From assembly GCA_040772045.1 (NCBI GenBank), contig JAXGYV010000011.1:12484-76483 (forward strand): a stretch of 64,000 bases of DNA, written 5' to 3'. This DNA comes from Thermoleophilia bacterium (GTDB lineage: Bacteria > Actinomycetota > Thermoleophilia > UBA2241). Position 1 is the first letter of the stretch. The number at the start of each line of letters is the position of its first letter. Made by a program: the position numbers and the translations under genes. The notes beneath the pieces were generated by a model, which saw nothing but the letters and a program-made list of their open reading frames with translations, was not told where the DNA came from and made no database searches. Positions 869 to 22,912 of this stretch are shown here, piece after piece.

Positions 869-1687
869 TCAAGCAACTCCTGTGTAACAGCAGCCGAACT
901 CCCGCATTGTGTACGGAGCCGGACGCGTAGATGAGCCGGCGGCAGCCATCACGAAGGCGGCGCGGAGCACGGGCCGGCCAGTGGCCTGCCACACGGCGAG
1001 CGCGTAGCCTCCAGCCTGCAGTTCGTACCGGCGACGGACACGCGCCTCATCTGGAACGCTATCGGTCTTGTAATCTACCACCACCCAACCGTCCGGTGCT
1101 TCGTAGAGGTCGCAGAAACCCTGGAGCACCAGGGGCTCGCTCGCCGGGCCGTCGTCGATCCGCGCGCAGAGCGGCACCTCGCGGAACATGCGCGGCGAGG
1201 CAGCGGCATGGCGGACCGGCGCGCTGAGCCAGCAGCCCTGCGCCATGCCCACGAGCCGCTCCACCCATGCGCGCGCCTGTACTCCCTCACCGCGCGAGGT
1301 CCTCGGCGGCCGCCACGGCCAGCGCCTCCATCTGCTCGGCGATCTCCGCCGGCACACGGACAGCATCCGGCACTCCAAGCGATACGATCTCCATGATGCG
1401 ATGCACCGTCGCGCCGGCAGCGAGCGTCGCGCGCCGCGCCGCGGCCAGCGAGGCGCGCTCGTGGCCGCTCGGCGCCTCGGCCTCGCCGAGGTCGAGGTCC
1501 TCCATGGAGAACCGGCGAGACCGCCGCCCGCGGACGAGCGGCCGCGCTCGCGACTTCCTTTAGCCGCCGGCCCCAGGCTTCGCGCAGCGCAGGCGCGCCG
1601 TTCCTCGCCCGGCTCTCCCGACTCGGCGCGCGGCGCGGCCTCTCCCGCCGGCAGGATCACGGCGCCATCCTGCATGCCGACGGTCAC
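869..1687 (-). pseudogene. C-terminal RecB-type nuclease region of the AddA-like gene, spread over several frames
   Basis: Frame C (1189 down to 869) carries the PD-(D/E)XK nuclease motifs VVVDYKTD and QxxxY. Frame B (1287..1505) and frame B again (1767..2000, helicase motif VI EASERRRLLYVAATR) also read as real protein. At least four frame switches fall between 2000 and 1200. Confidence 0.6.
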
Positions 1688-4371
1688 GCCCCCGGGTCCG
1701 GCAGCCAGCTCCGCAGCGGCTCGAGCAGCGAGCCGCTGCCGTTCCTCGGCCAGCCCGGAAGCATGATCACCAGCAGATCCATGGCCGCGTCGCCGCCACG
1801 TAGAGCAGCCGGCGCCGCTCGCTGGCCTCCATGGCCTTCTCGGCCTCCGCGGCCGTCGGCGTACGCCGAGCTCGCGGCCGGCAGCTTGCCCGCCGCCCGC
1901 TCATCTGGCGAAGCGGCTCGCGCGAGGCTGAAGGAGAGTTCACAGCGCCCGCGACGCCGGTCGAACAGCACGCGCGTCTCGTCTCGGCCACCGCCGGCAC
2001 GCGACCAGGCGTCGGCGATCACCACGATGGGGAACTCGAGCCCCTTGGCGCCGTGCACGGTGAGCACGCGGACCTCGTCCCCCCCGTCGTCCACGGTCGA
2101 CTCGATCTCCGCGGCGGCCGTCCCCTGCTCCTGCGCCCACTTCACGAACGTCGACAAGGTGACCCCCTCCTCGGTCGAGAACGCGCGTGCCACCTGCCGC
2201 AACTTGCGGAGGTTGGCCAGCGCCTGGCCGGCGCGGTCCCCCCACGCCGCCGCCGCCTCGAAGGCCCACGTCCGCCGCAGCAGATCGTCCAGGATCACGT
2301 CGATCGGACGGCCGTGCGCGCTCTCGTGCACGGCGCGCAGGGTGGCGAGAGCCGCGCAGATCTCCGCGTCGGCACCCGACGGCTGTTCCGCGAAGTAGTC
2401 GAACCGCCCTCCGGCGACGTGGAACAGGTAGAGACGCTGGTCCGCGAAGCCGAACAGCGTGGAGTGCAGCGCCCCGTACACGGCCAGCGGATCGGCACTA
2501 TCGGCCACGGCCCTGAGGCCCAAGAGGGTGTCGCGTACCTCACGCCGGCGGTAGAACATCTTGCCCGCCTCGATTCGGTACGGGATGCCCGCTTCGCGCA
2601 GCGCCTGTTCCAGCGCGCTGAGATCGATGGCCGCCCGGATGAGCACGGCCACATCGCCCCATCGCGCCGGCCGCCACTGCTCGCCGCTACCCTGCGGCGC
2701 ATCGGACTCGCGCTCACGGACGGACCACCCCTGCTCCCGGATGCCCTGAATCAGCAGCCGCGCCAGAGCCTCGGCTTCGGCGCGGCGCAGCTCCTCCGCC
2801 CGCGGTTCGACGGAAGGGCCGCAGACCACGGCCACGCGAGGCGCCGCATCTCCCGGCGCGGCGGCGAGGCTTTCCGGCTCCGGCCGAAACGCCGCCAGCG
2901 GCACGTACTCCGGCTGGCGGCGCGGTGCCGCGTCCTCGCCAATGACCGTCTCGAACACCTGGTTCACCCACGTAACAACGGACGGTACGGTACGGAAGTT
3001 CTGGCTGATCGAGAGGAGCTCGCCGCCGTTGCGCAGGATGAGGTCTTTCACGTCGTCGTACATGCCGATGTCGGCGCGGCGAAAGCGGTAGATGGATTGC
3101 TTGGGGTCGCCGACCACGAAGAGCTTGCCCGGTTTGAGGGCTACCTCGCGCCAGTCCGCCGCGCGCGCGCCGTCTTCCGCCAGCAGCAAGACGATCTCGG
3201 CCTGCAGCGGATCGGTGTCCTGGAACTCATCGATGAGGATGTAGTCGAACGCCTGCTGCCAGCGTTCCCGCAGACCTCGATGGGCCCGCACGGCATCGCG
3301 CAGCCGGCCGAGGAGATCGGCGAAGTCCAGATAGCCACGCTGGAGCTGCGCGCGAGCCGCCCACTCTCCGAAGGTACGCGCTGTACGTAGGATGTCTTCG
3401 GCCAGCGCGGCACCGTACTCCTCGAGGATGCTTTCCCTCAGCGCCCGCACGGCGGCACAGCGCTCCTGGAAAGCATCCTTCCCCTCTTTGCCACCCCAGT
3501 TCTTGGCCACTCCGGCCTTCGGAGAGACCACGGGCAGGGATGCCACGGCGGCCACCAGCCGATGGATACTGCCCTGCCGCGCCCCGCGCACCCTGTCGGC
3601 CTGCGCGCCACAGTCGAGCGCCGCCAGAAAGCCCTTGTCCTCGTGATCGCCGCACATCGCACAGGCGAATGCCGTCTGCTCTTCCAACGCCAGCACGAGC
3701 TCATCGGCGGAGGCGAGGAGGCTTTGCCGCGCTCCGGCTAGGCCACTCGCCCCTCCCGGGGGATCGCCAGCTCGCAAGTCGAACCGGTCGCTGAACAGGC
3801 GCCGGGCCGCGGCGTACAGGACGCCGACGGCCATTCCCGCCTCCAGCAGCGTACTCACAGCCTCCCGGCTGGTGGCCAGCGCCCCATCTCCTGCTGCCGC
3901 GTGCCCCTCCGCCTCAGGTTGGAGCACCAGCGCCAGCCACTCGTCCCACAGCCGGTCGAACAGCAATCGTCCGCCGAGTGCGTCGAGCTGCTTGAACGCG
4001 GGGTCCACGCCCGCCTCCAGAGGCGACTCCCGCAGGAGGCGCGCCGCGAAGGCGTGGATAGTCGAGATAGGCGCTTGATCGATGTCGCGGAGCGCCTCGC
4101 GCAGAACACACCAGCGCTCCGACCGCGGCTCTGAGCGCTCGACCAGCGAGCGGAGCCTGGCTCGCACGCGCAGGCGGAGCTCGCCGGCCGCCTTATCCGT
4201 GAAGGTGATGGCTACCACGCGGCGCACGGACCCGCAGGCCAGAAGACACGATACGAACCGCTCCACCAGGAGCCTCGTCTTGCCCGTACCGGCCCCGGCT
4301 TCCACCAGGAAGGTGGTCTGCAGATCGCTCAGCGCGCGCGTGCGAGCGGCCTGGTCGCAGGGCTCACGCAT
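1684..4371 (-). CDS. addA: AddA/UvrD-family helicase-nuclease, helicase portion (intact frame)
   Basis: N-terminal Walker A (TFLVEAGAGTGKTRLL), UvrD motifs (VVAITFTDKAAGELR, DEFQDTD, VGDPKQSIYRFR, LTVHGAKGLEFPIV). Overlaps the AddB-like gene end by 8 nt. The frame degenerates near the 3' end. Confidence 0.8.
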   Translation of the reverse strand: MREPCDQAARTRALSDLQTTFLVEAGAGTGKTRLLVERFVSCLLACGSVRRVVAITFTDKAAGELRLRVRARLRSLVERSEPRSERWCVLREALRDIDQAPISTIHAFAARLLRESPLEAGVDPAFKQLDALGGRLLFDRLWDEWLALVLQPEAEGHAAAGDGALATSREAVSTLLEAGMAVGVLYAAARRLFSDRFDLRAGDPPGGASGLAGARQSLLASADELVLALEEQTAFACAMCGDHEDKGFLAALDCGAQADRVRGARQGSIHRLVAAVASLPVVSPKAGVAKNWGGKEGKDAFQERCAAVRALRESILEEYGAALAEDILRTARTFGEWAARAQLQRGYLDFADLLGRLRDAVRAHRGLRERWQQAFDYILIDEFQDTDPLQAEIVLLLAEDGARAADWREVALKPGKLFVVGDPKQSIYRFRRADIGMYDDVKDLILRNGGELLSISQNFRTVPSVVTWVNQVFETVIGEDAAPRRQPEYVPLAAFRPEPESLAAAPGDAAPRVAVVCGPSVEPRAEELRRAEAEALARLLIQGIREQGWSVRERESDAPQGSGEQWRPARWGDVAVLIRAAIDLSALEQALREAGIPYRIEAGKMFYRRREVRDTLLGLRAVADSADPLAVYGALHSTLFGFADQRLYLFHVAGGRFDYFAEQPSGADAEICAALATLRAVHESAHGRPIDVILDDLLRRTWAFEAAAAWGDRAGQALANLRKLRQVARAFSTEEGVTLSTFVKWAQEQGTAAAEIESTVDDGGDEVRVLTVHGAKGLEFPIVVIADAWSRAGGGRDETRVLFDRRRGRCELSFSLARAASPDERAAGKLPAASSAYADGRGGREGHGGQRAAPAALRGGDAAMDLLVIMLPGWPRNGSGSLLEPLRSWLPDPGA

Positions 4372-6421
4372 CCGTGGCCCCCTCTGCTTGCCTCGCCGTT
4401 GACGACGACTCCGCCGCGGACGCAGACCATGGCCGCCGCAGCGCCGCCAGGCGGCCGAACGCCGGGTGGGCGCGCTTGCGCCTCTGCGTGAGCTTCAGCT
4501 CGTCGCAGGCATACGCCACAGGGCACCAGTCGCACGACCGCTCGTTCCAGGCGAGCCGTGGAAACACGCCCGCCTCCACAAGGCGCAGGATGCCGTCTAC
4601 CGTGTCGGCGAGCTGCTCGAGCACCATGGCCTCATCTGCCGGCAGCACGACCTCCGCGAGCTCCCGCCGCCGCGTGACCATGCGGAAGGCGCACGAGACG
4701 TCGGCGGCCTGCCGCCCTTCCGCCCGCGCACGCACCGCCAACCGGTAGACGGGGAGCTGTACGTTGCGCCCCGCCTCCACCTGCTCCTGCTCGCCTCTCC
4801 CCCTCCCCGTCTTGTAGTCGAGCACGCGCAGCCGGCGACCGTCGGCGCCGCGGTCCACCCGATCGATGCGGCCGCGGAACGACACCGTGCGGCCATCCGG
4901 AAGCTCCAGCGAAACCGCGGGGGCCTGCTCGCCGAACACGCTCTCCAGCAGCCACGGCTGCGGCCCTTCCGGCTCCGCCCACACGGGATCCTGCGCGACC
5001 GCGAGCGAGAGATCCTCGGCCATCCGCGCTTGTTCGATGCGCCACACCAGCGGCATACCCAGAGCGCCGCGCTCTTCCGCCACGCGACACTCCTCGGCGA
5101 CCAGAGCCGGTACCATGCTCACCGCCTCCTCTCGCCCAGCTCCGTCGCGCACCCGCGAGAACACCCGCTGGAGCACGCGATGGACGATCCTCCCCACCTC
5201 GCGTCGATCGGTCTCCACCAGCGGGTCGGCGGGCTCGAGCGGCTCGATCATCAGCACGTAGAGCACGTAGTACGCGAACGGGCACTCCAGATACTGCTGG
5301 AGCGCCGTGGGCGCCTGTGGGGTTGCCGGCCGCGCCGTGGCCGCGAGCTTCTGGCGAGCACGGTGGGAGTAGAACACGCCGTCCCACGACAGCGCTCCGG
5401 CGAACACGCCGCTCAACCGTCGGCCGAGGAGCCGCCGCGCGGTGGGCGCGCCGCACACGCGCTCCAGATACCGCCGCGGAGCCGTAGCCGCGCCGCGGCG
5501 GCGCGCGCTCTGCGAGAGCGCCAGCAGCAGGGCCACATCTAGGTCGCGCAGGTCGGCGGACGCGCCGACGACGTCGACCGCGCCGCCCGCGAGCGGCTGA
5601 GGGCCCGAGGCCGCCCGCCGCAAACCCGCGGCGGCGGGCGGCGGGCAGACGAAGTCCTCGGCCGCGACGGTTCGGCCGGTAAGCTCCTCTGCGAGCTCGA
5701 CCGCCGCGCGCGCGGGCTGGCGCTCCGCGCCGGCGGCGTCCCGACGAGGCACGTAGCCGACGAAGGAGCGCAGGGCAGCCTGGCGAGCCAGCGCGAACAG
5801 CGTATCCGCCTCGGACTCTCCTCCGCCCGGCTCCGCTAGATGCACCGCGAAGAGGCGCGCCAGGCGCTCCCTCTCCCGATCACAGAGGAGAGGATCGCCG
5901 CCGCGCGAGGGAGGAAAGCCACCGGAGCACAGCCCGGTGAAGTGCACCTCGGCGAAGCGCAGCCCGCGGAGCTCGTGTGGCGTCAGCACGGCCACGCCGT
6001 GCCGCGCGACCGCGCCGCAAGGCTCGCGCACTCCGCGGAGTCGCTCCCCGATTACGCGAGCGGCCTCCGCCACCGAGACAGCCTCCTCGACCGTCGCGCA
6101 GCGACGCAGCTCCGTGATCGCGAGCACGGCGGGATCGTCGGGCGACGCCGCGCACACTTCGTGAGCGAGGCGGACGAAGGCGGCGGCCATCTGATCCCAC
6201 GGCGCCACGGCGGGAAGGCCAGCCACCGCCTGCTGCACCCGGCCCACGAAGACACTGAGCCCGTCCACGGCCGCCCGCTGGCGCCGCAGCCGCCGCCAGT
6301 CATCGCCAGCCACTACCCCGGCCTGACGTGACTCCTCTGCCCACCTGGCGACCTCGTCGCCGCGAAGCACCCCGCCGCGGCCATGCCTTGCGCGTACGCG
6401 AGGAGCGCCGCTCGCTGCCAC
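4364..6421 (-). CDS. addB: AddB-like helicase-nuclease subunit, C-terminal part (PD-(D/E)XK nuclease with Cys cluster)
   Basis: C-terminal CDWCPVAYAC (CxxCx5C iron-staple motif of AddB/RexB-type nucleases). Overlaps the upstream ORF in another frame. Confidence 0.7.
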   Translation of the reverse strand: MAASGAPRVRARHGRGGVLRGDEVARWAEESRQAGVVAGDDWRRLRRQRAAVDGLSVFVGRVQQAVAGLPAVAPWDQMAAAFVRLAHEVCAASPDDPAVLAITELRRCATVEEAVSVAEAARVIGERLRGVREPCGAVARHGVAVLTPHELRGLRFAEVHFTGLCSGGFPPSRGGDPLLCDRERERLARLFAVHLAEPGGGESEADTLFALARQAALRSFVGYVPRRDAAGAERQPARAAVELAEELTGRTVAAEDFVCPPPAAAGLRRAASGPQPLAGGAVDVVGASADLRDLDVALLLALSQSARRRGAATAPRRYLERVCGAPTARRLLGRRLSGVFAGALSWDGVFYSHRARQKLAATARPATPQAPTALQQYLECPFAYYVLYVLMIEPLEPADPLVETDRREVGRIVHRVLQRVFSRVRDGAGREEAVSMVPALVAEECRVAEERGALGMPLVWRIEQARMAEDLSLAVAQDPVWAEPEGPQPWLLESVFGEQAPAVSLELPDGRTVSFRGRIDRVDRGADGRRLRVLDYKTGRGRGEQEQVEAGRNVQLPVYRLAVRARAEGRQAADVSCAFRMVTRRRELAEVVLPADEAMVLEQLADTVDGILRLVEAGVFPRLAWNERSCDWCPVAYACDELKLTQRRKRAHPAFGRLAALRRPWSASAAESSSTARQAEGATDA

Positions 6422-7485
6422 GCCTCCCCGGCGGCGGGAAAGGCCGCCTCCAGCAGGCTCCCCAGCGACACGCAGCCACCGCTCGACGGGGGCAGCCGGC
6501 GTGCCACGGGAAACCCCAGCGTCCGGAGGCCGCGCGCGAGGTGGTCCGCGCGCTGCTCGCTCGGCGCCACCACGGCGATCTCGTGAAAGCGCCGGCCCTC
6601 GCCAGCCGACCGGCGCAGCGCGCGCGCCACCTCGATCAGCTCGTCTTCGTCGTCGCCCACAGACACGAGCTCCGCCGCCGCCAACGCCGTCGCCGGCAGA
6701 GCATTCGCCCGCAGGCCGAGCTCAGCGAAGAAGCGCCACCCCGAGGCCGTGTAGCCCTGCCCGTCCTGCGGGGAAGGCAGGAAGACCGTCGTCTCACACA
6801 CGCCGGCCAGGACGGCCAGCAGCTCGCGCTGGCATTCCGGCAGATCGTACAGGCCGTAAACGAACGCTACGGCGGGGAGTGCGAGAACGTCGCCATCGTT
6901 CTCCACGAGGGTGCCGCGCTCGGAGATGCTCCCGTGGGGTGTACGCGCGCGCAGCGCCCGCGCTGCGCGCGCGTACACCCCCGCGCGATCGGCCGCATCG
7001 GCCTCGTGCAGCGCCGCCTCGTAAGCGATGAGAGCGCGGCGCACATCGGCCACCCGTTCGCCACAGCCGTCCCACGGCCTGTCGGCCGGCACTCGCGCCT
7101 CACGAAGGTCCTCGATGCTGCGCAGAAACGCGGGCACCAGACCCGGCATACCTCGCAGCGACCCGAACGAGCTCTCCGGCGACGCGGTCACACTGGCGAC
7201 AACCCGCTCGCCGAGACGCAGGCGAGCCTCGTCTGTGAGCACGTGATCGGCACGCAGCCCGCTGCGCTGTGCGAGGTCGAGAGCAAACCGATAGATGGTA
7301 ATCGCGCGCACGTTCGCGTGGCCACCGAGCCGCTCGGCGAGCAACCAGGAGAGGTACGTGGCCAGCGCGGCGGAACCGACGATCAGAGTGACCGGAGCGA
7401 GCGCATCCCGCTCGCGGACTGCCTGGACCTCCGCGGTGAGCGCGGCCTCCAGTGTTCCCAGATCACCGGTGTAGAGATACCCCAT
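6313..7485 (-). CDS. addB: AddB-like subunit, N-terminal part (degenerate ATP-binding region); frame-shifted relative to 4364..6421
   Basis: The 390-aa ORF ends inside the start of the 685-aa ORF in a different frame. Together they are ~1040 aa, the size of AddB/RexB. No P-loop is recognisable. Confidence 0.55.
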   Translation of the reverse strand: MGYLYTGDLGTLEAALTAEVQAVRERDALAPVTLIVGSAALATYLSWLLAERLGGHANVRAITIYRFALDLAQRSGLRADHVLTDEARLRLGERVVASVTASPESSFGSLRGMPGLVPAFLRSIEDLREARVPADRPWDGCGERVADVRRALIAYEAALHEADAADRAGVYARAARALRARTPHGSISERGTLVENDGDVLALPAVAFVYGLYDLPECQRELLAVLAGVCETTVFLPSPQDGQGYTASGWRFFAELGLRANALPATALAAAELVSVGDDEDELIEVARALRRSAGEGRRFHEIAVVAPSEQRADHLARGLRTLGFPVARRLPPSSGGCVSLGSLLEAAFPAAGEAWQRAALLAYAQGMAAAGCFAATRSPGGQRSHVRPG

Positions 7486-8587: not shown

Positions 8588-8663
8588 GCGAGTAGCTTAC
8601 CCCGCCCGGCACTCCATCGCGTCGCTCGCGACGACGCCGGGTGCATCGCGCCGCGGGAGAACA

Positions 8664-8705
8664 ATGGGGGAGGCCCCCCGCGACTCTTCCCGAGTCGCGG
8701 GCCTC

Positions 8706-8708
<3 letters not shown>
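8664..8708 (-). terminator. GC-rich hairpin immediately 3' of rnpB
   Basis: Minus strand reads GGGGAGGCCCGCGACUC-GGGAAGA-GUCGCGGGGGGCCUCCCC followed by CAUUGUUCUC. Confidence 0.5.
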
Positions 8709-9120
<412 letters not shown>

Positions 9121-9475: not shown

Positions 9476-10162
9476 ATGGTCATGAGGCTGCTCGGCTTGA
9501 GCTTTAGCCCTCGCAAGAACAGCAACAGCTCCGCGCTCTTGCGCACCTCCTTTGACCGCCTCCTTGCAACCTACCCTGGCGAAGTGGAATGCGAGACGAT
9601 AGACGTGCGTGAGCTGCACGTTGAGCCCTGCGACGACTGCGACGTATGCGGCAAGAGTAAGGGAGACGGTCGCCACATCCCGTGCATAAGGGCCGAGGAC
9701 GACGATGTGCAGGGAGTCCTCGACAAGATGGTCGCTGCTCACGGCTTCATCGTCGCTACTCCAGTTTACTTCGGTTTGCCCTCAGATCTCTTCTCGAAGT
9801 TCATCATGCGCACCCGGGTGCTCCGCCACCAGGACTTTCGCCTCGCCAACCGCGTAGCTGGCGTTATGGCCATCGCCGCGCGTCGCTCGGGCGGCGCCGA
9901 AACAACCATTCTCTCCACGTGGCTGCCGCTGATACGCAACGGGTGCTTGGTCGTCGGCAACGGCGATCAAACATGCCAGTACGGTGCCATGGGTTGGGCT
10001 AGCGCTCGAAACCACATCCTGACCGACGAGTGGGGCCTCGAACAGGGGTTTCAGGTCGCGCAGCGGGTGTTCACAGTCGCCAAGCTCGTGCAGACCGGCA
10101 TACAAACACTGCATTTCCACAGCCCCATGACGTTCGACTACACATCAGGGACCCGGCCCTAA
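9476..10162 (+). CDS. NADPH-dependent FMN reductase / iron-sulfur flavoprotein (Isf)-like protein
   Basis: LLGLSFSPRK flavodoxin-like FMN-reductase signature. Compact Cys motif CDDCDVCGK...C. AGGAGAG RBS 7 nt upstream of ATG 9476. Confidence 0.7.
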   Translation: MVMRLLGLSFSPRKNSNSSALLRTSFDRLLATYPGEVECETIDVRELHVEPCDDCDVCGKSKGDGRHIPCIRAEDDDVQGVLDKMVAAHGFIVATPVYFGLPSDLFSKFIMRTRVLRHQDFRLANRVAGVMAIAARRSGGAETTILSTWLPLIRNGCLVVGNGDQTCQYGAMGWASARNHILTDEWGLEQGFQVAQRVFTVAKLVQTGIQTLHFHSPMTFDYTSGTRP

Positions 10163-10224
10163 CGCGGACCTCCAACGCAAGAGAGTGGAGGCGTCAAGCG
10201 GGCAATCCAGGAGGACAGAGCACC

Positions 10225-10470
10225 ATGTCGGATGCCGCCATCATCACCGAGTACATCTGCGATGAGCTTCTCAACGGCGAACGCGTCGAGGCAGACACGT
10301 CGCTGTTTCGCACCAAGCTCCTGGATTCCCTCAGCCTCACGAGCTTGATCCTCTTCCTCGAACAACGGTTCGCGGTACGCATTGGCCCCATGGACATCTC
10401 GTACGAGAACCTCGACAGCGTCAGTCTCATCGTGGCCTTCCTGGAGAGGAAGAGGAATGCAACCCCGTGA
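10225..10470 (+). CDS. acyl/peptidyl carrier protein (DltC-like)
   Basis: 81 aa; LDSLSLTSLILFLEQRF with the DSLS phosphopantetheine-attachment serine. GGAGGA RBS. Confidence 0.75.
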   Translation: MSDAAIITEYICDELLNGERVEADTSLFRTKLLDSLSLTSLILFLEQRFAVRIGPMDISYENLDSVSLIVAFLERKRNATP

Positions 10471-10634
10471 CAGGTGGATAAGCCTCACCCCGGCGCGCGC
10501 CGGGAAGAGCCGCCGCCAACATCCGACGCCGTGGTACGTGGCCGGCTTGACTGTTCAGTGCCTCCTTTGGACCCTCGTGTTCATGGCGTTGGTGCTCGTC
10601 GCCCTCGGCGGCCTAGGTCTCACGGAGTTCCGCT

Positions 10635-12146: not shown

Positions 12147-12203
12147 GCCAATCTGACTGGAACGGTCGGCTTCTCACCGCAACGGGCTGACGCTGACGCG
12201 CTC

Positions 12204-13442
12204 ATGAGCATCTACTTCTCCATCTATCTTCTGCCCGCGGCCGCGTTCTCCGTGCCCTTCTACTGGCTCGTCCTCAAAAAGGACCAACATCGCCTGCTCT
12301 TCCTGCTCCTCGGCTCCGTGGGCGTCCTGATGACGATTCACCCTGTCTTCGCTATGGTGGCCCCAGGGGTCGTCGCCGGGTCATGGGCTCTGGTCAACTG
12401 CATGGACAAGCGGCGCCTTACGATCGATACCGCACTCGTGATCGCCATTTCGGCGGCCATCCTCATCCTGGCCATCGGAAAGTACGGCCGCGACATCGCC
12501 GCCGCCATTTGGTCGCCCGACGACTGGGTGCTCAGCCGACTGATCATGCCCCTCGGGCTGAGCTACTTCGCATTCCGCCTCTTGCAGTACGTGTTCGACC
12601 ACGCACGGGGAACGCTGAGAGACCGCTCGCTGGTACGCCTCGGCGCATTCATGTTCTTCCTGCCCATCTTCCCGGCCGGGCCGCTCGAGACGTACCAGGG
12701 TTTCTACGAGAAACGCTCCTCGCACTTCGACAAGCAGCTCCTCTACGGCGGCCTGCGGCGAATCGTGCTGGGCTATTTCAAGAAGACGGTGATCGTCGAC
12801 TTCCTCATCGCCATCTTGTTCTCCGACCTCTTGCGAGACGTTCACGCCGCCGATCTTGGCGAAGCTCTCGTTCATCCCGCGTGGGGCCCCGCCTTCGTAG
12901 TCGTCGCCTTCCTGCGCGCCTACGCGGATCTGTCCGCGTACACCGATCTCGCCATCGGTTTCTCGAGCCTCTTCGGCTTCCGCATCATGGAGAACTTTGA
13001 CCGCCCGCTCTGGAGGCCCAATCTGGCGGAGTTCTGGCGCTGCTGGCATATTTCGCTCAGCAGCTGGTGCCGCAACAACGTGTACTTCCCCATCTTCGGC
13101 CTCACGCGCAAACCGTGGCTCGGTCTCTACGCGACCATGCTGGTCATGGGTCTGTGGCACTACGTAAACCTCAATTGGACAGCATGGGGCCTCTACCACG
13201 GCACCGGCCTCGTGGTGGTCTCGTGGTGGATGAAGCAGAAGCGGAAACGGACTAGAGCCTGGAGGGCAACGGGACGACCGCTGTGGGCTCGCCTCCTGAG
13301 ACCATCGGGCTATGTCGTCACCTTCCTCTTCGTCGCCCTGGGCTACTCCTTCGTGGCCACCCAAAGGTTCCCGGAGGCGCTTCGGGTTTTCGTATGGGCC
13401 GTCGTCGGCCCCTTCATCTGGCTCGGACAGCGGATGTTCTAA
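12204..13442 (+). CDS. membrane-bound O-acyltransferase (MBOAT; DltB/AlgI family)
   Basis: Multi-TM protein with FWRCWHISLSSWCRNNVYFPIF (MBOAT catalytic His motif). Confidence 0.8.
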   Translation: MSIYFSIYLLPAAAFSVPFYWLVLKKDQHRLLFLLLGSVGVLMTIHPVFAMVAPGVVAGSWALVNCMDKRRLTIDTALVIAISAAILILAIGKYGRDIAAAIWSPDDWVLSRLIMPLGLSYFAFRLLQYVFDHARGTLRDRSLVRLGAFMFFLPIFPAGPLETYQGFYEKRSSHFDKQLLYGGLRRIVLGYFKKTVIVDFLIAILFSDLLRDVHAADLGEALVHPAWGPAFVVVAFLRAYADLSAYTDLAIGFSSLFGFRIMENFDRPLWRPNLAEFWRCWHISLSSWCRNNVYFPIFGLTRKPWLGLYATMLVMGLWHYVNLNWTAWGLYHGTGLVVVSWWMKQKRKRTRAWRATGRPLWARLLRPSGYVVTFLFVALGYSFVATQRFPEALRVFVWAVVGPFIWLGQRMF

Positions 13443-14593
13443 TGCCGAAGACCGTGGAGGACACCATAATATCGCAGCCGGCGTCGCCCCCATCGGCAGG
13501 TGGCATGGCGCTCGGCAGACGCGCCCAGTTTCTGCGCGGCCTGCGCTGCACGAACCCTCTGGTGCTCCTGGCAGCCGCCGCACTGGCCGCAGTCCTGCTG
13601 TTCGTCGTTCAAGGACTCGTCGTGCGTGGTACATACCGCGCGATCGATGAACGGCACTTGCTGCGCTCGCCGAAAGACGACTACACGCACATCGCGTACC
13701 TCATCGCACAGCTGCGTGCGCACCCTCCGCAGCGCCTCCCCGTGTACTACATCGGCGGCTCGGCCACACGAGAGTCCATCCGCAGTGGCGAGACATTGGC
13801 AGACGCACTGTCGGCGACCACCGGTATTCCTACTGAAGTGCACATCATGGGCTCCAAACAGCAGACGCTGGCTGAAACACTGGCGATCGTCGACAACCTG
13901 CCTCCGGGTCCCGCTGTGGTGACCGTAGGCCTCAACCGCTACCGTTTCCGCATCTCGCCGCAGCTGTCCGCGCGGCAGCTCCAGGGTATCGAGTTCCTGC
14001 TCGCAAGCCCCAGCTTACGATCCTTCGCCGCGCGTACCGACGGGATTGGCCCACGGGATCGCACCCTCATCCCGGGTATTGCCAACTACATGTCAACTTG
14101 GTTGCGCTACCGGCACAAGAGCCTCCTCCGCCTTCGCCTGAGGAAGATCGACTACCAGTTCCACCTATTTGACCGTACCAATCAGCTCTCCGACGCACGC
14201 AAGGCCCAGAACGTGGCCACAGTGCGAAAGGCCGCGCTCAACCGAGCACCGCAGCCAGACGCCGTGATGCGCTACAACCTGGATCTCCTCCGGGCGATTG
14301 CCGAAACCGCCCGCGCCCGCGGCTTCCAGGTTGTCTTTTTCGAGGTGCCGCGGAACAAAGAGATGCTCGGCGATACGTGGTCGATCGACAGTGAGACCTA
14401 CGCGCCTTTTGTGGCCGCCACCGCCCGTCAGTGCCACACTACCTATCTTGACCTGAACCTCGAAGTAAACATCCCGAACGAGCACTTCGCCGACCTCTCG
14501 CACCTTCTGGATCCCGGGCGCCTGACATGGGAACGTCACCTCGCTCCCGCCCTCGCACCGTTCGTCACAGCGGCGCGGAACTCTGACCCGTAA
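13442..14593 (+). CDS. DltD-like membrane-anchored SGNH-fold protein
   Basis: ATG overlaps the MBOAT stop (TAATG). N-terminal signal-anchor LVLLAAAALAAVLLFVVQGLVV. YYIGGSATRE candidate Ser nucleophile and C-terminal FADLSHL (DxxH). Confidence 0.6.
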   Translation: MPKTVEDTIISQPASPPSAGGMALGRRAQFLRGLRCTNPLVLLAAAALAAVLLFVVQGLVVRGTYRAIDERHLLRSPKDDYTHIAYLIAQLRAHPPQRLPVYYIGGSATRESIRSGETLADALSATTGIPTEVHIMGSKQQTLAETLAIVDNLPPGPAVVTVGLNRYRFRISPQLSARQLQGIEFLLASPSLRSFAARTDGIGPRDRTLIPGIANYMSTWLRYRHKSLLRLRLRKIDYQFHLFDRTNQLSDARKAQNVATVRKAALNRAPQPDAVMRYNLDLLRAIAETARARGFQVVFFEVPRNKEMLGDTWSIDSETYAPFVAATARQCHTTYLDLNLEVNIPNEHFADLSHLLDPGRLTWERHLAPALAPFVTAARNSDP

Positions 14594-14594
14594 C

Positions 14595-15346
14595 TCAAAC
14601 GCGGGGTTGCAGACACTCCGCCGCCGCGCGATCGATGAGCCACGTGAGGCGGCCGAAGCGAGGTACTACTCCCTGAGCTGGCAGCCGCCGCGGATCCCAC
14701 GGCCCCTGGAGCACCTCGGCCACCGCCGCCGCCTTCTCCTGCCCCACGGCCGCGAACACGATGTGCCGGGCGCTCTTCAGCAGCGGTAGGGTCACCGTGA
14801 GTCGCCGTCCCACACCAGGGATATCGTCGACCACTACGAGGCGGCGGGTCTCACGCAACGTCTGTCGGTACGGGAACAGCGAGGCGGTGTGCCCATCGGC
14901 GCCCATGCCGAGCAAGATGAGATCCATCCGCGGCACACCGCCGGGCACCGTGCCGGCCTCTCTCGCCTGAGCGCGGAGCAGTGCCTCGTACTCCCGGGCA
15001 GCCTGCTCGGGATCCGCCGCCTCTCCGCGCAGGCGATGGACGCGGGTGGGTGGGAGGGGAACGGTGTTCAGAAAGGTCTCCTGAGCTAATCGATAGTTGC
15101 TGGCCGCGTCGCCGGGGGCCACGCAGCGCTCGTCCCCCCAGAAAACGCGGACTCGGGACCACGGCACCGAGGATACGTACGGCTCATCCGCCAGCAGCAG
15201 GTACAGCGCGCGCGGCGTGGAGCCGCCGCTGAGCGTTACGGCGAAGGACCGCGCGCGCCCACAGCGTCGCGCGCGTCCCGCAGGAACAACTCGGCGGCGC
15301 GGCGCGCCACCGCCGCGGCATCGGGAAGCACCTCCAGCGTCGGAGC
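14595..15346 (-). CDS. pgl: 6-phosphogluconolactonase, frame disrupted near 15250-15258
   Basis: LLGMGADGHTASLFP and FAVTLSGGSTP motifs. N-terminal 36 codons (MAGAPTLEVLPDAAAVARRAAELFLRDARDAVGARG, ATG at 15346) lie in another frame. Removing one GC unit from the (CG)4 tract restores ...DAVGARSFAVTLSGG. Confidence 0.75.
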
Positions 15347-15369
15347 ACCCGCCATACCCTCGCGACGCC

Positions 15370-16943
15370 CTATGGACGTCGCCACTCCCTGCCGTCGGTG
15401 GCGAGCATCACCACCGCCGCCTCGGGGCCCCAGCTGCCGGCGACGTAGGTTTCCACCTCACGACGGTCGTTTCCCCAGGCCCCCAGGATCGGCTCGATGA
15501 TGCGCCACGACTCCTCCGTCTCGTCGTCTCTGTTGAACAAGGTCGCGTCGCCGGTGAGCACGTCCAGGAGAAGCGTCTCGTAGGCGCTGAACGGCAGCTC
15601 GTCGAGCGTGGAACCCCAGCTGAAGTCGAGCACCACCGGCTCGAGGCCGATCTCCTCGCCGGGCGCCTTGCTCTGTACCCGCAGGCTCATCCCCTCGTCC
15701 GGCTGGATGCGCAGCACGAGGAGGTTCGGCTGCACGGACTCCAGCGGCATCTCGGCCTTGCGGAACAGGAGGAACGGAGGCCGCTTGAAGTGAATGGCCA
15801 CCTCCGTGACGTCGCGCGGCAGGCGCTTGCCCGTACGCAGGTAGAACGGGACACCCTCCCAGCGCCAGTTGTCAATGAAGAGCTTGACGGCGGCGTAGGT
15901 CTCCACACGGGTGCCCGGCGCGACCCGCGCCTCGTCCCGATAGCCCTTCACGGACTGCCCGTCGATGATACCGGGGGCGTACTGGCCGCGCACGGCGAGT
16001 CGGCTCACCTGATCGACGGCGATAGGGCGCACGGCACGCAACACCTTCACCTTCTCGTCGCGCACCGCGTCGGCACTGAACGCTACCGGCGGCTCCATGG
16101 CCGTCAGAGTGAAGAGCTGCATGAGGTGATTCTGGATCATGTCCCGCAGCGCTCCAGCCTCTTCATAGTAGGCGCCGCGATGCTCCACCCCAAGCTTCTC
16201 CGCGGCGGTGATCTGGACATGGTCCACGTATCGCCGGTTCCACAGCGGCTCGAAGATCATGTTGGCGAAGCGGAACATGAGGATGTTCTGCACGGTCTCC
16301 TTCGCCAGGTAGTGATCGATGCGGTAGACCTGCTCCTCGTGAAAGACGCTGTTCACCACGCGATTGAGCGCCCTTCCGCTGCCGAGGTCGCTGCCGAAGG
16401 GCTTCTCGACGACGATGCGCGACCAGCCGTGCTCGCCCTCCGTGGAGCCGGTAGCGAGCACGTCGGCGGCCTCACCGCCGCTCGGCTCGCGCGCGCGCGC
16501 GAGCCGAGCCCCGCATCTCCCAGGCCCTGAATGATGGCGGCGAACGCACTCGGCGGCGTGGCCAAGTAGAAGATGCGGTTGCCCGGCTCGGCACGCTGGC
16601 CCTCGACCTCTCGCAGCGTGTGCACCAGGCGATCGTAGGTACGCGGGTCGTCGAACTCCCCCTGCACGTACCGGGGCGCCTGGAGCACCCGGCCGCAGAC
16701 CGCGCCGTCCACGAGGTCGCTCCCGTAGTGATCATCGACGGCTTTCTGCAGCAGCGCCGCCAAGTCCTGGTCGCTCAGCTCCCGCCGGCCGACACCCACC
16801 AGGCCGAACCGCGACGGGAGCACGCCGTGGCACGAGAGGTCGTACAGCGCCGGCATGAGTTTGCGGTGTGTCAGGTCGCCCGTCACCCCGAAGATCACCA
16901 GGGTGCACGGGGCTACTGGAGCGTATCCGTCAGGACGCGCCAT
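15370..16943 (-). CDS. zwf: glucose-6-phosphate 1-dehydrogenase, frame disrupted in the (GC)6 repeat at 16489-16501
   Basis: N-terminal [22 protein letters not shown] and C-terminal [17 protein letters not shown] signatures lie in two frames. Deleting one CG unit from (GC)6 gives the continuous ...[44 protein letters not shown]. Confidence 0.8.
16489..16501. repeat. (GC)6 dinucleotide tract at the zwf frame break
   Basis: Plus strand reads gcgcgcgcgcgcg; one unit fewer restores zwf. Confidence 0.8.
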
Positions 16944-17880
16944 CCGGGCCACCCTCTCTGACACGCACCGCGTGACCGCCGAACTCGTTGCGCAGGGCGG
17001 CCAGCACCCGGGCGCCAAACGAGTCGGGCTGCCGCGAGCGAAAGCGGGCGAACAGCGATAACGCGATCACCGGCGCCGGCACAGCCGCTTCGATCGCCTG
17101 GGACACGGTCCAGCGACCCTCGCCCGTGTCTTCCACATACCCCTCTATGCCGGCGAGATCCGCGTCTTTGCGAAACGCGTCTGCGACCAGCTCGAGCAAC
17201 CAGGAGCGTACGACGCTGCCCTGGTTCCACACGGCGGCGATGGCCGCCAGATCGAGGGGCCACGGCGCGGCCCGCAGGATCTCGAAGCCCTCCGCATACG
17301 CCTGCATCAGCCCGTACTCGATGCCGTTGTGGACCATCTTCACGAAGTGGCCCGCACCCGATCCGCCCGCGTGCACGTAGCCGCCTGCGGGCGCCAGCGT
17401 GCGCAGCAGTGCTTCTGCCTGTTCGAACGCTACGCGCTCCCCGCCCACCATCAGGCAGTAGCCCTGTTCCAGACCCCAGACGCCGCCGCTGGTGCCCACG
17501 TCCAGATACCGGATGCCGTACTGTGCCAGCCGCTCGGCGCGCGCGATATCGTCTTTGTAGAAGCTGTTGCCGCCATCGATGACCACATCGCCCGCCTCGA
17601 GGTGCGGGACGAGGGTATCGATGGCGGCGTCGGTGGGGGCACCATGCGGGAGCATGAGCCACACCGAGCGCGGTGCCGGCAGCGCGCGCGGCACGTCCGC
17701 CAGCTCTCGCACCGCCTCGGCGCGGCCGCCGTCCGCGCCCGGCGCGCCGGCCGATTCGCGCGCGAGCTCGACGGCGCGCTCGTACGTGCGATTCCAGAGC
17801 ACCACGCGATGGCCGCCGCGCAAAAGCCGCCGGGCCATGTTGGCCCCCATGCGTCCCAATCCGAGCATCGCTACGTCCAT
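16930..17880 (-). CDS. gnd: 6-phosphogluconate dehydrogenase-like NAD(P)-binding protein (short ~315-aa form)
   Basis: MDVAMLGLGRMGANMARRLL Rossmann N-terminus. AAAGGAG RBS before ATG 17880. Overlaps the zwf start by 14 nt. Confidence 0.7.
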   Translation of the reverse strand: MDVAMLGLGRMGANMARRLLRGGHRVVLWNRTYERAVELARESAGAPGADGGRAEAVRELADVPRALPAPRSVWLMLPHGAPTDAAIDTLVPHLEAGDVVIDGGNSFYKDDIARAERLAQYGIRYLDVGTSGGVWGLEQGYCLMVGGERVAFEQAEALLRTLAPAGGYVHAGGSGAGHFVKMVHNGIEYGLMQAYAEGFEILRAAPWPLDLAAIAAVWNQGSVVRSWLLELVADAFRKDADLAGIEGYVEDTGEGRWTVSQAIEAAVPAPVIALSLFARFRSRQPDSFGARVLAALRNEFGGHAVRVREGGPDGAS

Positions 17881-17911
17881 GCGACTCCTTTCGGCCGGGA
17901 TCACGCTCCCG

Positions 17912-19600
17912 CTATCCGCCCAGCGCGGTCTGTACCAGGGGGATGAGGCGCCGCAATCCAGCTACGGGATCGGCGCCGAGCTCTACCCGTAGCACGCGTC
18001 GACCACGGGCGGCGAGCGCCTGCATGTCGCCGAGCGCTTGCGCGTGGATCAGGCGCCGGAAGCCGTAGTCGACCCCCGGCACGGGCAGGTCGTCTTCACT
18101 CCGCGCGACGAGCTGGAGAAACACGCCACCGACGGAGCCGCCTTTGTGGTACTGGCCCGTCGAGTGCAGGAAGCGGGGCCCATACCCGAGCGTAGTGGCC
18201 ACGTGCCGCCGATCGCGCACCATCTGGCGAAGCGTCGTGAGCTCGGCCCACGCCGCCGGCGACGGAGTGACCCACGCCTGGAACGCCACGTAGGAGGGCG
18301 GCGACACGGCGGCCACCACAGCTGCCAGCGCCGGCACGAGCGCCGCGTCGTCGACCGCGAACACGCTCTGCCCACCGTCTGCCGCCCGCGGCGTCGCGAC
18401 CTCCTCGCTCGCCGCCAGGTCGGCCAGCACGCGCCGCGTGTTCTCTTTGCTCTCCTGCACATTCGGCTGGTCGAACGGATTGACGCCCAGCACGGCGCCG
18501 GCCACAGCGACCGCCACCTCCCAGATGAAGAACTGCCGGCCCAGGTCGAAGGCGTCGGCCATCTCCAGATGCAGTACCGGTATGCCGGCCGCCTCGAGCG
18601 CCGCAACCTGCGCGTCCTGAGCCGCGTCGGGCGCGTCGTTCAATCGGAGGTACACGAAGACGCGGTCGTCGCCGTACGCGTCCGACGAGCCCAGCGGCTC
18701 CGCGTCCACGGGCAGGATGCCGCTGCCCTCCTTGCCGGTGCTCTCGGCCACCAGCTGCTCCACCCACGCGCCGAAGGAGGCGATGCCGGGCGAGGCGAAC
18801 ACGGTCAGCTTGTCGCGACCGGCGAGGACCGACTCGCCCAGGGCCGCGCCCAAGACGAGGCCGGGGTTCTCGGCAGCCGGTATCGCCGGCCCGCAGTCCT
18901 CCGCCGCCACCACCGCGCGCCCGAGCAGCTCGGCGAGGTCCATGCCGCCCAGCGCAGCGGGCACCATGCCGAAGAACGAGAGCGCAGAGTAGCGCCCGCC
19001 GATGTCGCTCGGATTGACGAACACGGCGCGAAAATCCTGCTCCACAGCCTGACGCTGCAGCACGGTCCCCTCATCCGTTATAGCGATGAAGTGGCGCCCC
19101 GCGTGCACGGAGTCACCCGCCGCCCGCAGTCGCTCGAAGAAGTACGCGTGGAGGCTCGCCGTCTCCGTGGTCCCGCCCGACTTGCTAGCCACGACGAACA
19201 GCGTGGTCTGCGGATCGAGCCGCGAGTCGGCGGCGGCGACGGCACGAGGATCCGTGGTGTCGAGGACCGTCAGTTTGAGATACCCGGCGGCGGCGCCGAA
19301 CGCGGACGACAAAACCTCGGCCGCCAGGCTGGATCCTCCCATGCCGAGCAGCACCGCCTCGCGATACCCTTCGGCGGATACCTCGGCGGCGAAGCCGAGC
19401 AGTTCGGGCAGACTGTCGCGAACCTGCTCGGCTACATCCAGCCAGCCAAGCGAGCGCTCAATGGTAGCTCGATGGCCGGGATCACTCTTCCACAGCGTGG
19501 CGTCCTGAGCCCAGAGCCGGCCAGCCACATCGTCTGCCGCAAACGCCCGCAGACGCGCGCGGACACGCTCCCGCAGTGAGGCGGGGACGATCTCGCTCAT
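17912..19600 (-). CDS. pgi: glucose-6-phosphate isomerase
   Basis: LGMGGSSLAAEV and FVVASKSGGTTET sugar-isomerase (SIS) motifs. Overlaps the tal stop by 4 nt. Confidence 0.8.
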   Translation of the reverse strand: MSEIVPASLRERVRARLRAFAADDVAGRLWAQDATLWKSDPGHRATIERSLGWLDVAEQVRDSLPELLGFAAEVSAEGYREAVLLGMGGSSLAAEVLSSAFGAAAGYLKLTVLDTTDPRAVAAADSRLDPQTTLFVVASKSGGTTETASLHAYFFERLRAAGDSVHAGRHFIAITDEGTVLQRQAVEQDFRAVFVNPSDIGGRYSALSFFGMVPAALGGMDLAELLGRAVVAAEDCGPAIPAAENPGLVLGAALGESVLAGRDKLTVFASPGIASFGAWVEQLVAESTGKEGSGILPVDAEPLGSSDAYGDDRVFVYLRLNDAPDAAQDAQVAALEAAGIPVLHLEMADAFDLGRQFFIWEVAVAVAGAVLGVNPFDQPNVQESKENTRRVLADLAASEEVATPRAADGGQSVFAVDDAALVPALAAVVAAVSPPSYVAFQAWVTPSPAAWAELTTLRQMVRDRRHVATTLGYGPRFLHSTGQYHKGGSVGGVFLQLVARSEDDLPVPGVDYGFRRLIHAQALGDMQALAARGRRVLRVELGADPVAGLRRLIPLVQTALGG

Positions 19601-20748
19601 TCCTGCTCCGCGGCGAACCTTACTCGCTTGGCCTCCACCGACTGCACCGCCCCGTCGTGAGCCTTCGTGAACAGACGCACGCCTTCCCGCTGCAGCTCCT
19701 CTGTCTCCCGGTCCAAGTCGATGCCGACCTCCGCGAGCGCCGCCAGGTCGGCGTGGGCTCGCTCCACATCGGCATCTACGGTGCGCTGTACGCGACCGTG
19801 ATCGAGGAACGCCCGCAGCGTGGCCTCCGGCACCGTGTTCACCGTGTCGGGGCCGATCAACTGGTCCACGTAGAGCACATCGCTATACGAAGGGTTCTTG
19901 GTCCCCGTGCTCGCCCAGAGGACGCGCTGGCGGCGCGCCCCGAGGGCGGCGAGCCGCTGCCACCTGGGCGAGGATACCAACGCGCTGAACCGCTCGTAGA
20001 CAACCCGAGAGTTCGCCACGCCGACACGGCCCCTGAGATCCTCCAAGAGCTGCCGTTGTCGCGCGTCGACAACCTCGCCGAGGCGTTCCTCGATGAGCTT
20101 GTCGCACACCGTGTCCACACGAGAGACGAAGAAGCTGGCTACCGAGGCGATGCCGGCCACACCCTGCCCCCGGGCCGCGCGATCCTCAAGCGCCTGCATG
20201 AACGCCTCGACCACCGCGGTGTAATGGGCCAAGGAGAACAGCAGCGTGATGTTGATGTTGATGCCATCGGCGAGGCAGCGGCGGACGGCCGGAATGCCCT
20301 CCGCGGTGCCCGGGATCTTGATCATGACGTTCGGCCGACCGACCGCCTCCCAAAGACGATGCGCCTCGGAGATGCTGAGATCCGCATCGTAGGCGGCGCG
20401 CGGCGAGACCTCGATGCTCACGTAGCCGTCGGCGCCGCCCGTCGAATCGTAGAGCGGCCGGAACACGTCGCACGCCGCCTGCACGTCCGCGACGGCGATG
20501 CGGTCGTAGATTGCTTCCGCGTCGAGCCCCTTCCTGGCCAGGTCGCGGAGCTGAGCATCGTACGCATCGCCGCCGCCGATGGCCTTCTCGAAGATGGACG
20601 GATTGCTGGTCTCGCCGCGCACACCGACCTCTTCTACCAGACGACGCAGACCGCCACCCGCCACCATCTCGCGGCTGATGTAATCGAGCCAGATGCTCTG
20701 ACCCTGTGCCCAGAGCTCCCGTACGCGACCGCTTCCCGGTTCAGCCAT
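19597..20748 (-). CDS. tal: transaldolase
   Basis: GETSNPSIF and VMIKIPGT motifs of actinobacterial-type transaldolase. Start MAEPGSG with GGAGGAAC RBS. Confidence 0.8.
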   Translation of the reverse strand: MAEPGSGRVRELWAQGQSIWLDYISREMVAGGGLRRLVEEVGVRGETSNPSIFEKAIGGGDAYDAQLRDLARKGLDAEAIYDRIAVADVQAACDVFRPLYDSTGGADGYVSIEVSPRAAYDADLSISEAHRLWEAVGRPNVMIKIPGTAEGIPAVRRCLADGININITLLFSLAHYTAVVEAFMQALEDRAARGQGVAGIASVASFFVSRVDTVCDKLIEERLGEVVDARQRQLLEDLRGRVGVANSRVVYERFSALVSSPRWQRLAALGARRQRVLWASTGTKNPSYSDVLYVDQLIGPDTVNTVPEATLRAFLDHGRVQRTVDADVERAHADLAALAEVGIDLDRETEELQREGVRLFTKAHDGAVQSVEAKRVRFAAEQE

Positions 20749-20857
20749 CCCCTCTCGTTCCTCCGTGGTCGACGGTCGCCGAGCGACCGATCTCCGTTGT
20801 CTGGATCCGCGGGCTCGTACCACTCGCTTCAGTGGACCTCCCCGCCGCCGCCCGTCC

Positions 20858-22912
20858 TCAAATGGAACGGTCTTCGCCGAAGCTAGCGAGCAGTTCTCTC
20901 GCCCGCGCATATACCGCCTCGGCGGTAATCCCGAACTTCTCGAACAGTTGCGGGGCGGGAGCCGAGGCGCCGAATCGATCGAGGCCGATCACCGCTCCGT
21001 CCAGGCCCACCCAACGCTCCCAGCCAAAGGTACTGCCCGCCTCGATGGCCAGACGCAGCGGCGTCCGTGCCGGCAAGACGCGCTCGCGATACGCCGCCTC
21101 TTGGCGTTCGAAAATCTCCCAACTCCCCATATTGACGACACGCACCGCCTGTCCTTCGGCGCACAGCCGGCGGTGCGCGGATAAGGCCAACTGAACCTCG
21201 CTACCACTGGCAATCAGGATGAGCGACGGCGCCTCTCCATCCGATGTGTCCGCCAACACGTACGCGCCGCGCTCGAGTCCGTCGGCGGCGGCGTAGACAG
21301 CGCGGTCGATCACCGGCAGTTTCTGGCGGCTGAGCGCCAGGCAGACGGGGCCGTCGGCTCGTAGCGCCATCTTCCAGGCCACCACGGCCTCGTTGGCGTC
21401 GGCAGGCCGTATGACGGTCACGTCGGGGGTGGCGCGCAGCATGGCGAGGTGCTCCACCGGCTGGTGCGTGGGGCCGTCTTCACCCAGCCCGATGCTGTCG
21501 TGCGTGAATATGTAGATCACCGGCAGCCGCATGAGCGCGGCCAGGCGCAACGCCGGACGCAGATAGTCGGCGAATACCAAGAACGTCCCGCAGAAGGGGC
21601 GCAGGTCGCCGTGGAGCGCCATACCGTTGCAGGCGGCCGCCATGGCGTGCTCGCGCACCCCGAAGTGCAGCACGCGCCCCGCCGGATGGTCACTGGACAG
21701 ATCGCCGCCACCGGCGATACCCGTGTTGTTCGACGGGCCGAGGTCGGCCGACCCGCCGACCAACTCCGGCAGCGCGGTAGCGAGCGCGTTGAGCGCCGCC
21801 CCGGCCGCCACTCGCGTGGCGACACCACCATCTTGCTGCCCGTACGACGGCACAGCTTGATCCCACCCGTCGGGGAGCTCTCTGCGCGCCACGCGGTCCC
21901 ACTCCGCGGCAAGGTCCGGCCGCAGGCGCCGCCACCGCGCCATACGCGAGCGCCAGGCCAACTCGGCGGCGGCTCCCTCGGCGCTCGCTTGGCGGAAGAA
22001 CGACAGCACGTCGTCCGGCACCAGGAACGCCGGCTCAACGGGCCACCCCAGCGCCTCTTTCGCCGCCCGTACTTCCTCTTCGCCCAGAGGCGCGCCGTGC
22101 GCGGCCGCCGTGTCTTGCTTAGCCGGAGAGCCGAAGCCGATGTGCGTGCGCACGCAGATCAGAGACGGCCGTCGCGTCTCTGCCTTGGCCGCCGCCAGCG
22201 CACGGTCGACCGCGTCGACGTCGTTGCCATCGGCCACGTGCTGCACCTGCCAGTCGTACGCCGCGAAGCGCGCCTCACGGTCTTCCGTGAACGTGAGCTC
22301 CGTGCTACCTTCGATCGATATACGATTGTCGTCGTAGAGAACGATGAGCTTTCCCAAGCCGAGATGACCCGCCAGCGATGCCGCCTCCGAGGACACCCCC
22401 TCCATGAGATCGCCATCTCCAGCGATGACGTAGGTGAAATGGTCTACTACCGTGAGGTCATCACTGTTGTAGCGCGCCGCGAGATGAGCTTCGGCGATGG
22501 CCATACCCACCGCCGCGCCAAGCCCCTGGCCCAGCGGCCCGGTGGTGATCTCTACGCCGGGGAGCAGGCCATACTCCGGGTGTCCGGCCGTGCGGCTGTC
22601 GATTTGGCGAAAGGCTCGCAGATCGTCGAGCGTCACGCCGTAGCCGCTCAGGTGAAGCAGCGCGTAGAGCAGCATGCTGCCGTGACCAGCGGAGAGTACG
22701 AACCGGTCGCGATCGGGCCACCCCGGCGCCGATGGGCTGTGCTTCAGATGGCGAGTCCACAACGCGAACGCCATGGCGGCGGCGCCCATGGGCATCCCCG
22801 GATGTCCGGAACGCGCTCGTTGGACCGCATCTACCGCGAGAAAACGGACGGTGTTGATGCAGGTCTCCTGGAGCTCTCGCGCACGCCCCCGACGATCCTG
22901 ATCTTCGCTCAT
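20858..22912 (-). CDS. tkt: transketolase
   Basis: [26 protein letters not shown]-terminus and thiamine-PP-binding region; 684 aa. Confidence 0.9.

Follow-up and report, generated by a model that had tools for sequence, protein, structure and literature searches.

An Interrupted pgl Gene in the Pentose-Phosphate Cluster of a Thermoleophilia Assembly, Probably an Assembly or Consensus Error

Gene Layout of the Pentose-Phosphate Cluster and the Interrupted pgl Gene

The window, which is the whole 64,000-nt stretch of DNA analyzed here, carries a pentose-phosphate cluster on the minus strand (22912..14595). Its genes are tkt (22912..20858), tal (ending at 19597), pgi (19600..17912), a short gnd-type 6-phosphogluconate dehydrogenase gene of the NAD type (TIGR00872; 17904..16930), zwf (15370..16943), and pgl (15355..14595). 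The first four are intact, as the preliminary description of this DNA stated, and their lengths match those on related contigs (643, 383, 562, and 316 aa). The classical actinobacterial operon has the order tkt-tal-zwf-opcA-pgl. The operon at 14595-22912 differs from it in lacking opcA between zwf and pgl and in having pgi and gnd as insertions.

The last gene, pgl, adjoins zwf and is interrupted. Its ATG is at 15355-15353, not at 15346 as was described earlier. The start frame reads MAGAP...DAVGARG, 36 correct codons (MAGAPTLEVLPDAAAVARRAAELFLRDARDAVGARG), followed by three out-of-frame codons (PSP) and a TAA at 15238-15236. This 5' fragment (15236..15355, minus strand) is therefore closed after 39 codons, and its residues 1-36 are identical to those of the intact alleles P0125 and P0129. 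The body of the gene (14595..15247, minus strand) runs from SFAVTLSGGSTP through LGMGADGHTASLFP and GMGADGHTASLFP to ECLQPRV, is free of internal stops, and ends with the stop codon at 14597-14595. Its protein is identical to the intact allele P0123, and its frame lies one base back (-1) from the frame of the 5' fragment. Frame translation thus bears out the earlier claim that the first 36 codons are cut off from the rest. The accompanying claim that the body has no usable start holds only approximately: products of 190 aa or 175 aa can be read from GTG codons, both without the N-terminal quarter of the domain, and among ORFs with a start codon the longest (190 aa) spans only profile positions 52-232. 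No single uninterrupted pgl ORF that includes the N-terminal LSGGSTP loop is found in the window.

The lesion is a 1-nt deletion. On the plus strand, all 13 of the other same-population assemblies covering the site read GGACCCGCGCGCGCC, and the window reads GGACCGCGCGCGCC; at 15248..15249 the window has CC (GG on the coding strand) where the others have CCC (GGG). The missing base lies immediately 3', on the coding strand, of an unchanged (CG)4C tract at 15250..15258 (CGCGCGCGC). The preliminary description gave the sequence of this tract correctly. It placed the lesion inside the tract, however, and took it for the gain of one 2-bp GC unit, whereas the intact alleles all have as many CG units as the window and the lesion only adjoins the tract. 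Removal of one GC, the repair proposed there, does restore the frame, but the conserved Gly36 is lost and the product has 252 aa against 253 aa in the relatives. When the missing G is put back instead, a 253-aa Pgl with the conserved junction ...GARGSFAVTLSGG... results. The intact relatives all read (G/D)ARGSFAVTLSGG and are all 253 aa, encoded in each of the 13 as a single ORF.

The repaired protein scores 201.4 bits against TIGR01198 (cut-off 124.45; profile positions 2-232 of 234) and matches Pfam PF01182 with E = 1.6e-69 (positions 1-225 of 225). The actual gene is most likely an ordinary, predicted 253-aa 6-phosphogluconolactonase (Pgl/DevB) that ends a tkt-tal-pgi-gnd-zwf-pgl operon. 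The full-length family match after repair and the position directly downstream of zwf are as in known zwf-pgl operons; the interruption after codon 36 is the difference. A protein search with a repaired Pgl yielded a 253-aa protein with 99% identity, encoded on a contig where both zwf (524 aa) and pgl are intact. The alignment of this contig with window 17331..14178 shows 99.1% identity, 26 substitutions, and exactly two gaps; in each of the two genes the window lacks a single base. The window sequence does contain the frame break in pgl.

Two other searches concerned the surroundings of pgl. Among the matches listed in a Pgl scan of genome contigs, the relatives have at most 53% identity and none is close. 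Pattern scans of metagenome contigs around the lesion matched neither the deleted nor the intact allele and thus carry no weight for either. One other assembly, L093 (JGI 3300033174), has a private lesion of its own in pgl, a +4-nt insertion at window position 15059, and its called product is 117 aa.

The Broken zwf Gene

The N-terminal part of zwf starts at ATG 16943 and is in the wrong frame after ~16496; the C-terminal part ends at 15370. One nucleotide is missing at 16495..16496, at the center of a GC palindrome (16480-16510) with 14-bp arms, GCTCGGCTCGCGCG and CGCGCGAGCCGAGC, so that GG has become G. The lost base lies between CG tracts with an unchanged number of units. The protein has 524 aa in all relatives, apart from the 520-aa Zwf of L093, which has an in-frame palindrome variant 12 nt shorter (aligned at 16482-16509). 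Seven of the eight other assemblies at this site have the base that the window lacks, and the eighth has an in-frame variant. Two short-read contigs from other assemblies, L092 and L094, stop at the palindrome. The earlier view that zwf and pgl share one type of lesion holds insofar as both genes are split in G+C-only sequence, but the changes are losses of 1 nt and not gains of 2 bp.

The comparison set was collected from Logan, ENA, JGI, and NCBI by exact-protein look-ups and consists of many independent assemblies that belong to the same population at the species level. At least three haplotypes are represented: haplotype A is a MEGAHIT contig of 82,119 nt found in nine samples, haplotype B is a 91-kb JGI contig, and haplotype C comprises the PRJEB18470 assemblies. 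In zwf and pgl, the window has no private substitution; every base occurs in haplotype A, B, or C. The same was found for the wider interval 13.4-18 kb, where no private substitution against the three haplotypes was observed. Relative to haplotype A, pN/pS is 0.05 in zwf and 0.19 in pgl, and neither gene has additional stops. Signs of pseudogene decay (raised dN/dS, additional stops, private substitutions) were sought in both genes and none was found.

Frame Breaks in addB and addA

A self-trained codon-usage Viterbi scan of the window recovered the frame switches in pgl and zwf and flagged further candidates. When these candidates were compared with the other assemblies, addB and addA proved to be broken as well. 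The remaining candidates were rejected, as the relatives have the same gene structure: a VWA CoxE-like gene at 36959, a HAD-AIRS pair at 31.4-34 kb, an overlap at 47060-47169, and the FMN_red/ACP region.

The addB-like gene (4364..7485, minus strand) has a private 1-nt deletion at 6370, which cuts it into products of 390 aa and 649 aa; elsewhere the protein has 1073 aa or 1040 aa. A homologue search with the AddB N-terminal part gave two matches, one of them on the frameshift-ridden contig L082, and in these the frame runs on across 6370. A search with the AddB pieces against PDB sequences gave a single weak AddB match and nothing else. The lesion does not lie within a hairpin. The two lengths of the intact protein reflect a natural in-frame 99-nt length polymorphism at ~6279-6296, and the short form is common to the window, haplotype B (L095), and L098.

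The addA-like helicase-nuclease gene (869..4371, minus strand; 1202 or 1200 aa elsewhere) is affected in its 3' part. The last 1.1 kb (~870-1900) contains about 12 private small indels, and the reading frame switches there at least seven times, with helicase motif VI (ERRRLLYVAATR) out of frame. The pN/pS value is 0.44 in the 3' part against 0.12-0.22 in the 5' part. Old decay of this part was considered and rejected: the 49 apparently private substitutions, mostly transitions, fell to 15 once haplotype C was added. About six of these 15 lie away from indels, against the ~12 private indels.

The same end of addA is irregular in other data. In P0157, from an ENA contig of 8,114 nt, residues ~800-840 of AddA are out of frame (RVAVRPAVARRCELLLQPRASRS... 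against RVLFDRRRGRCELSFSLARAAS...) between two compensating shifts. A contig of 2,093 nt from the NCBI GX537 MAG has two separate ORFs for this end of the gene, P0151 (347 aa, partial) and P0154 (244 aa). The 3' end of addA appears to be hard to assemble in several data sets.

The genes for Ku and a full-length LigD (892-893 aa) are adjacent and intact at window 56703-60200. End-joining repair is therefore present in the lineage in addition to the AddAB locus.

Spectrum of Differences Private to the Window

The truncated products Pgl (175 aa), Zwf (363 aa), AddA (895 aa), and AddB (649 and 390 aa) are on record from one NCBI contig only, of 82,267 nt. Their intact counterparts occur in JGI, ENA, Logan, and NCBI assemblies. 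None of the other fetched assemblies has the pgl or zwf lesion of the window, which is a weak test, as the exact haplotype of the window has been sampled once.

Private differences were counted over window 1-21351, where haplotypes A, B, and C are available. There are 27 private substitutions and 16 private indel events by the automated count (about 19 by hand). Among themselves, the three haplotypes differ in the same interval by 778 substitutions and 14 indels. The excess of indels in the private differences has an odds ratio of 33 (Fisher p = 1e-14). The private ratio of indels to substitutions is about 1:1.5 over these 21 kb, and between natural haplotypes it is 1:50 to 1:100. Window-wide, 14 private substitutions lie within 5 nt of an indel. 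At 8590-21351, there are two private substitutions, both transversions, against four private indel events. The private indels outside the broken genes are intergenic or multiples of 3.

The rest of the window is different in character. No coding frameshift was found in a search from 17 to 61 kb, about 37 kb of the rest of the window is free of them, and the private ratio of substitutions to indels there looks natural. Any error process must therefore be local. The natural haplotypes also contain a hypervariable intergenic block at 53740-53945, which is about 10% divergent and has many indels between haplotypes, while the flanking genes, for a MerR-GAF-HD-GGDEF regulator and a P-type ATPase, are 99% identical.

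It was also considered that the lesions mark switches between haplotypes, as in a chimeric join. This is true for zwf and nearly so for addB and pgl, but it is not significant. Because ~15-40% of these genes lie in switch intervals, the argument was dropped.

A similar cluster was seen in an assembly other than the window. In L085 (ERZ3460579, SPAdes coverage 4.5), a low-coverage assembly of another sample, eight private one- or two-nt deletions at window 58153-58523 split ligD. The patch has only three private substitutions, and it is exactly there that the haplotypes differ densely. It is probably the same kind of artefact.

GC Hairpins and Sequence Context of the Lesions

Three of the altered loci lie in very stable predicted folds. 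Ranked among all 50-nt folds of the 64 kb, pgl is in the top 0.44%, zwf in the top 0.03%, and an intergenic hairpin in the top 0.11%. The G+C-rich hairpin around the pgl lesion (15236..15290) has -20.7 kcal/mol in the intact allele (z = -3.0). The intergenic hairpin (8668..8704; -27.3 kcal/mol, z = -8.5) lies between divergent cupin and FMN-reductase genes and is an 18-bp perfect GC hairpin in 12 of the 12 other assemblies. In the window, one arm has gained 2 C and the other has lost 1 G, both changes being private, and the pairing is spoiled.

Hairpins as such are not sufficient. Among the 28 strong hairpins covered by other assemblies, 25 have no indel private to the window. The strongest predicted DNA hairpin of the window (-33.5 kcal/mol, 6921-6995) is located within addB and is the same in ten other assemblies. 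The end of the haplotype C contig with L113 was calculated from coordinates to fall close to this hairpin, at about window 6873. Counts for the whole window are 25 for (CG)≥4 tracts, 110 for stretches of 12 nt or more that consist of G+C only, and 1695 for G/C runs of 3 nt or longer. In none of the (CG)≥4 tracts covered by other assemblies does the unit number differ from theirs, which refutes the earlier suggestion that a polisher systematically adds a unit in GC dinucleotide runs.

A run of genes on the plus strand (9473-14593) begins with an FMN-reductase gene. It is followed by genes for an 81-aa carrier protein, a 63-aa protein, a 503-aa AMP-binding enzyme, a 412-aa MBOAT protein (named AlgI by one source), and a 375-aa protein. 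This run would be a candidate carrier-dependent acylation or D-alanylation system that resembles the Dlt type (DltX/A/B/C/D-like).

Assembly or Consensus Error as the Preferred Explanation

Since the break in pgl is private to one assembly and 13 others are intact, it is probably a technical assembly or consensus error at a G+C-only, hairpin-forming site and not a mutation of the organism or the loss of a pathway. The preliminary description had raised an assembler or polisher artefact as one possibility, and the comparison of assemblies supports an assembly artefact as a serious candidate. The other assemblies agree with one another at each of the three hairpin loci (13 of 13 at pgl, 7 of 8 at zwf, 12 of 12 at the intergenic hairpin). 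Indels dominate the private differences, which sets these apart from natural variation at the same locus. A private spectrum of this kind, placed at GC hairpins and in one strain-variable patch on a background of shared alleles, is the look of consensus errors.

The origin of such an error can be inferred only in outline. Reads from mixed strains may have been collapsed into one consensus, which would leave an indel error. Alternatively, an indel-prone read type could have been used, or a gap could have been closed where short reads cover the sequence badly. Mechanisms of this kind have been published. When alleles with nearby variants are collapsed, wrong read alignment leads to indel errors and to apparent frameshifts that truncate ORFs (PMC8445201). 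Genes are fragmented by the indel errors of long reads (PMC12007338), and inverted repeats degrade nanopore base calling (PMC7229812). The window resembles the collapsed-haplotype and long-read cases in that isolated 1-nt indels split conserved genes in one assembly only, with indels dominating, and in that one of its indel clusters lies in a variant-dense patch where strains differ. It is unlike them in two respects: the size of the source contig resembles that of short-read contigs, and a few loci within 21 kb are affected, not the whole window. The likeness to sequencing trouble at inverted repeats lies in the position of the pgl, zwf, and intergenic loci in the most stable hairpins and in the breaks of other assemblies at the zwf palindrome. 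It is limited by the many strong hairpins that are unaffected, the strongest one included, and by the addB lesion outside any hairpin.

Several points stand against an error. The source contig (82,267 nt) is close in size to the MEGAHIT contig (82,119 nt) and to a JGI contig (82,091 nt), which suggests a short-read assembly, and such assemblies seldom contain 1-nt indel errors. The genes that are broken group into two functional pairs, zwf with pgl and addA with addB, as expected if dispensable modules were decaying; random errors would rarely yield two such pairs (~1%, a rough estimate). The different frameshift of L093 (+4 nt) could mean that null alleles of pgl segregate in the population. 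The points for an artefact are stronger than those for a real mutation.

Alternative Explanations

The first alternative is that the breaks are real and very recent. The window would then carry null alleles private to one strain, in which zwf/pgl and addAB were inactivated under relaxed selection by slippage or by hairpin-associated 1-nt deletions in G/C runs. This is the main alternative, although it is unlikely. The pairing of the broken genes into two adjacent functional units fits it, as do the private indels elsewhere, which are intergenic or keep the frame in the way that selection would leave them. The raised pN/pS of the addA 3' part, the independent frameshift in the pgl of L093, and a source contig whose size resembles that of a short-read assembly, which rarely makes such errors, point in the same direction. 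Pgl is dispensable in several bacteria, since its lactone substrate hydrolyses spontaneously, which also speaks for this alternative. Young pseudogenes formed by slippage in short G/C runs are also alike in the loss of one base and in the breakage of linked neighbor genes. They differ in what accompanies the lesions. In zwf-pgl, two private frameshifts stand beside zero private substitutions, there is no accompanying decay, and the alleles occur in no other sample. The private ratio of indels to substitutions (~1:1.5 against the natural 1:50 to 1:100) is far from that of mutations in this population. Both arms of the intergenic hairpin are altered so that their pairing is spoiled. In the 3' part of addA, 6-15 private substitutions beside ~12 private indels are far too few for a decayed pseudogene.

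A single cause for real deletions can be constructed from the repair genes of the window. If AddAB had been lost, double-strand breaks arising at hairpins and palindromes might be mended through end joining by Ku-LigD (56.7-60.2 kb), with scars of 1-2 nt left at the strongest GC hairpins, two of which would have inactivated zwf and pgl. If true, it would explain why the private differences are heavy in indels, centered on hairpins, and without substitutions. This chain of events is quite improbable.

The gain of one GC unit in a (CG)n tract of both genes, by repeat expansion or by addition through an assembler or polisher, is very improbable. In its favor, removal of a GC restores the frame and both lesions touch alternating CG tracts. 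The alignment to the 13 intact alleles refutes it: a 1-nt gap falls outside the repeat, with the units constant there and in every covered (CG)≥4 tract, and the 2-bp repair sacrifices Gly36 and one residue of the conserved length.

Programmed recoding, in which the two frames would be connected by -1 ribosomal frameshifting or by transcriptional slippage and the gene would be functional as it stands, has hardly any likelihood. The body is indeed in the -1 frame from the start frame and a GC hairpin is present, but the sequence ahead of the stop contains neither an X XXY YYZ slippery heptamer nor a long A/T run, all 13 close relatives encode a single ORF without a frameshift, and breaks of this kind are found in three further, unrelated genes. 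A phase-variable contingency locus was rejected, because every allele has the same (CG)4 tract and the altered run consists of no more than three G.

Implications for the Pentose-Phosphate Branch and AddAB

Taken at face value, the breaks would suggest an uncultured actinobacterial lineage without the oxidative pentose-phosphate branch and the AddAB recombination nuclease. The preliminary description had raised a lack of oxidative pentose-phosphate activity. Because addB and addA are broken too, the lesions are not specific to this branch, and that reading is weakened. A check that does not need reads is to compare the ratio of private indels to substitutions of a MAG with the ratio between natural haplotypes at the same locus. 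Were the deletions real, the lineage would provide a minor case in which two modules have each lost a pair of genes. Given the other assemblies, the loss of these metabolic functions should not be inferred from this assembly.
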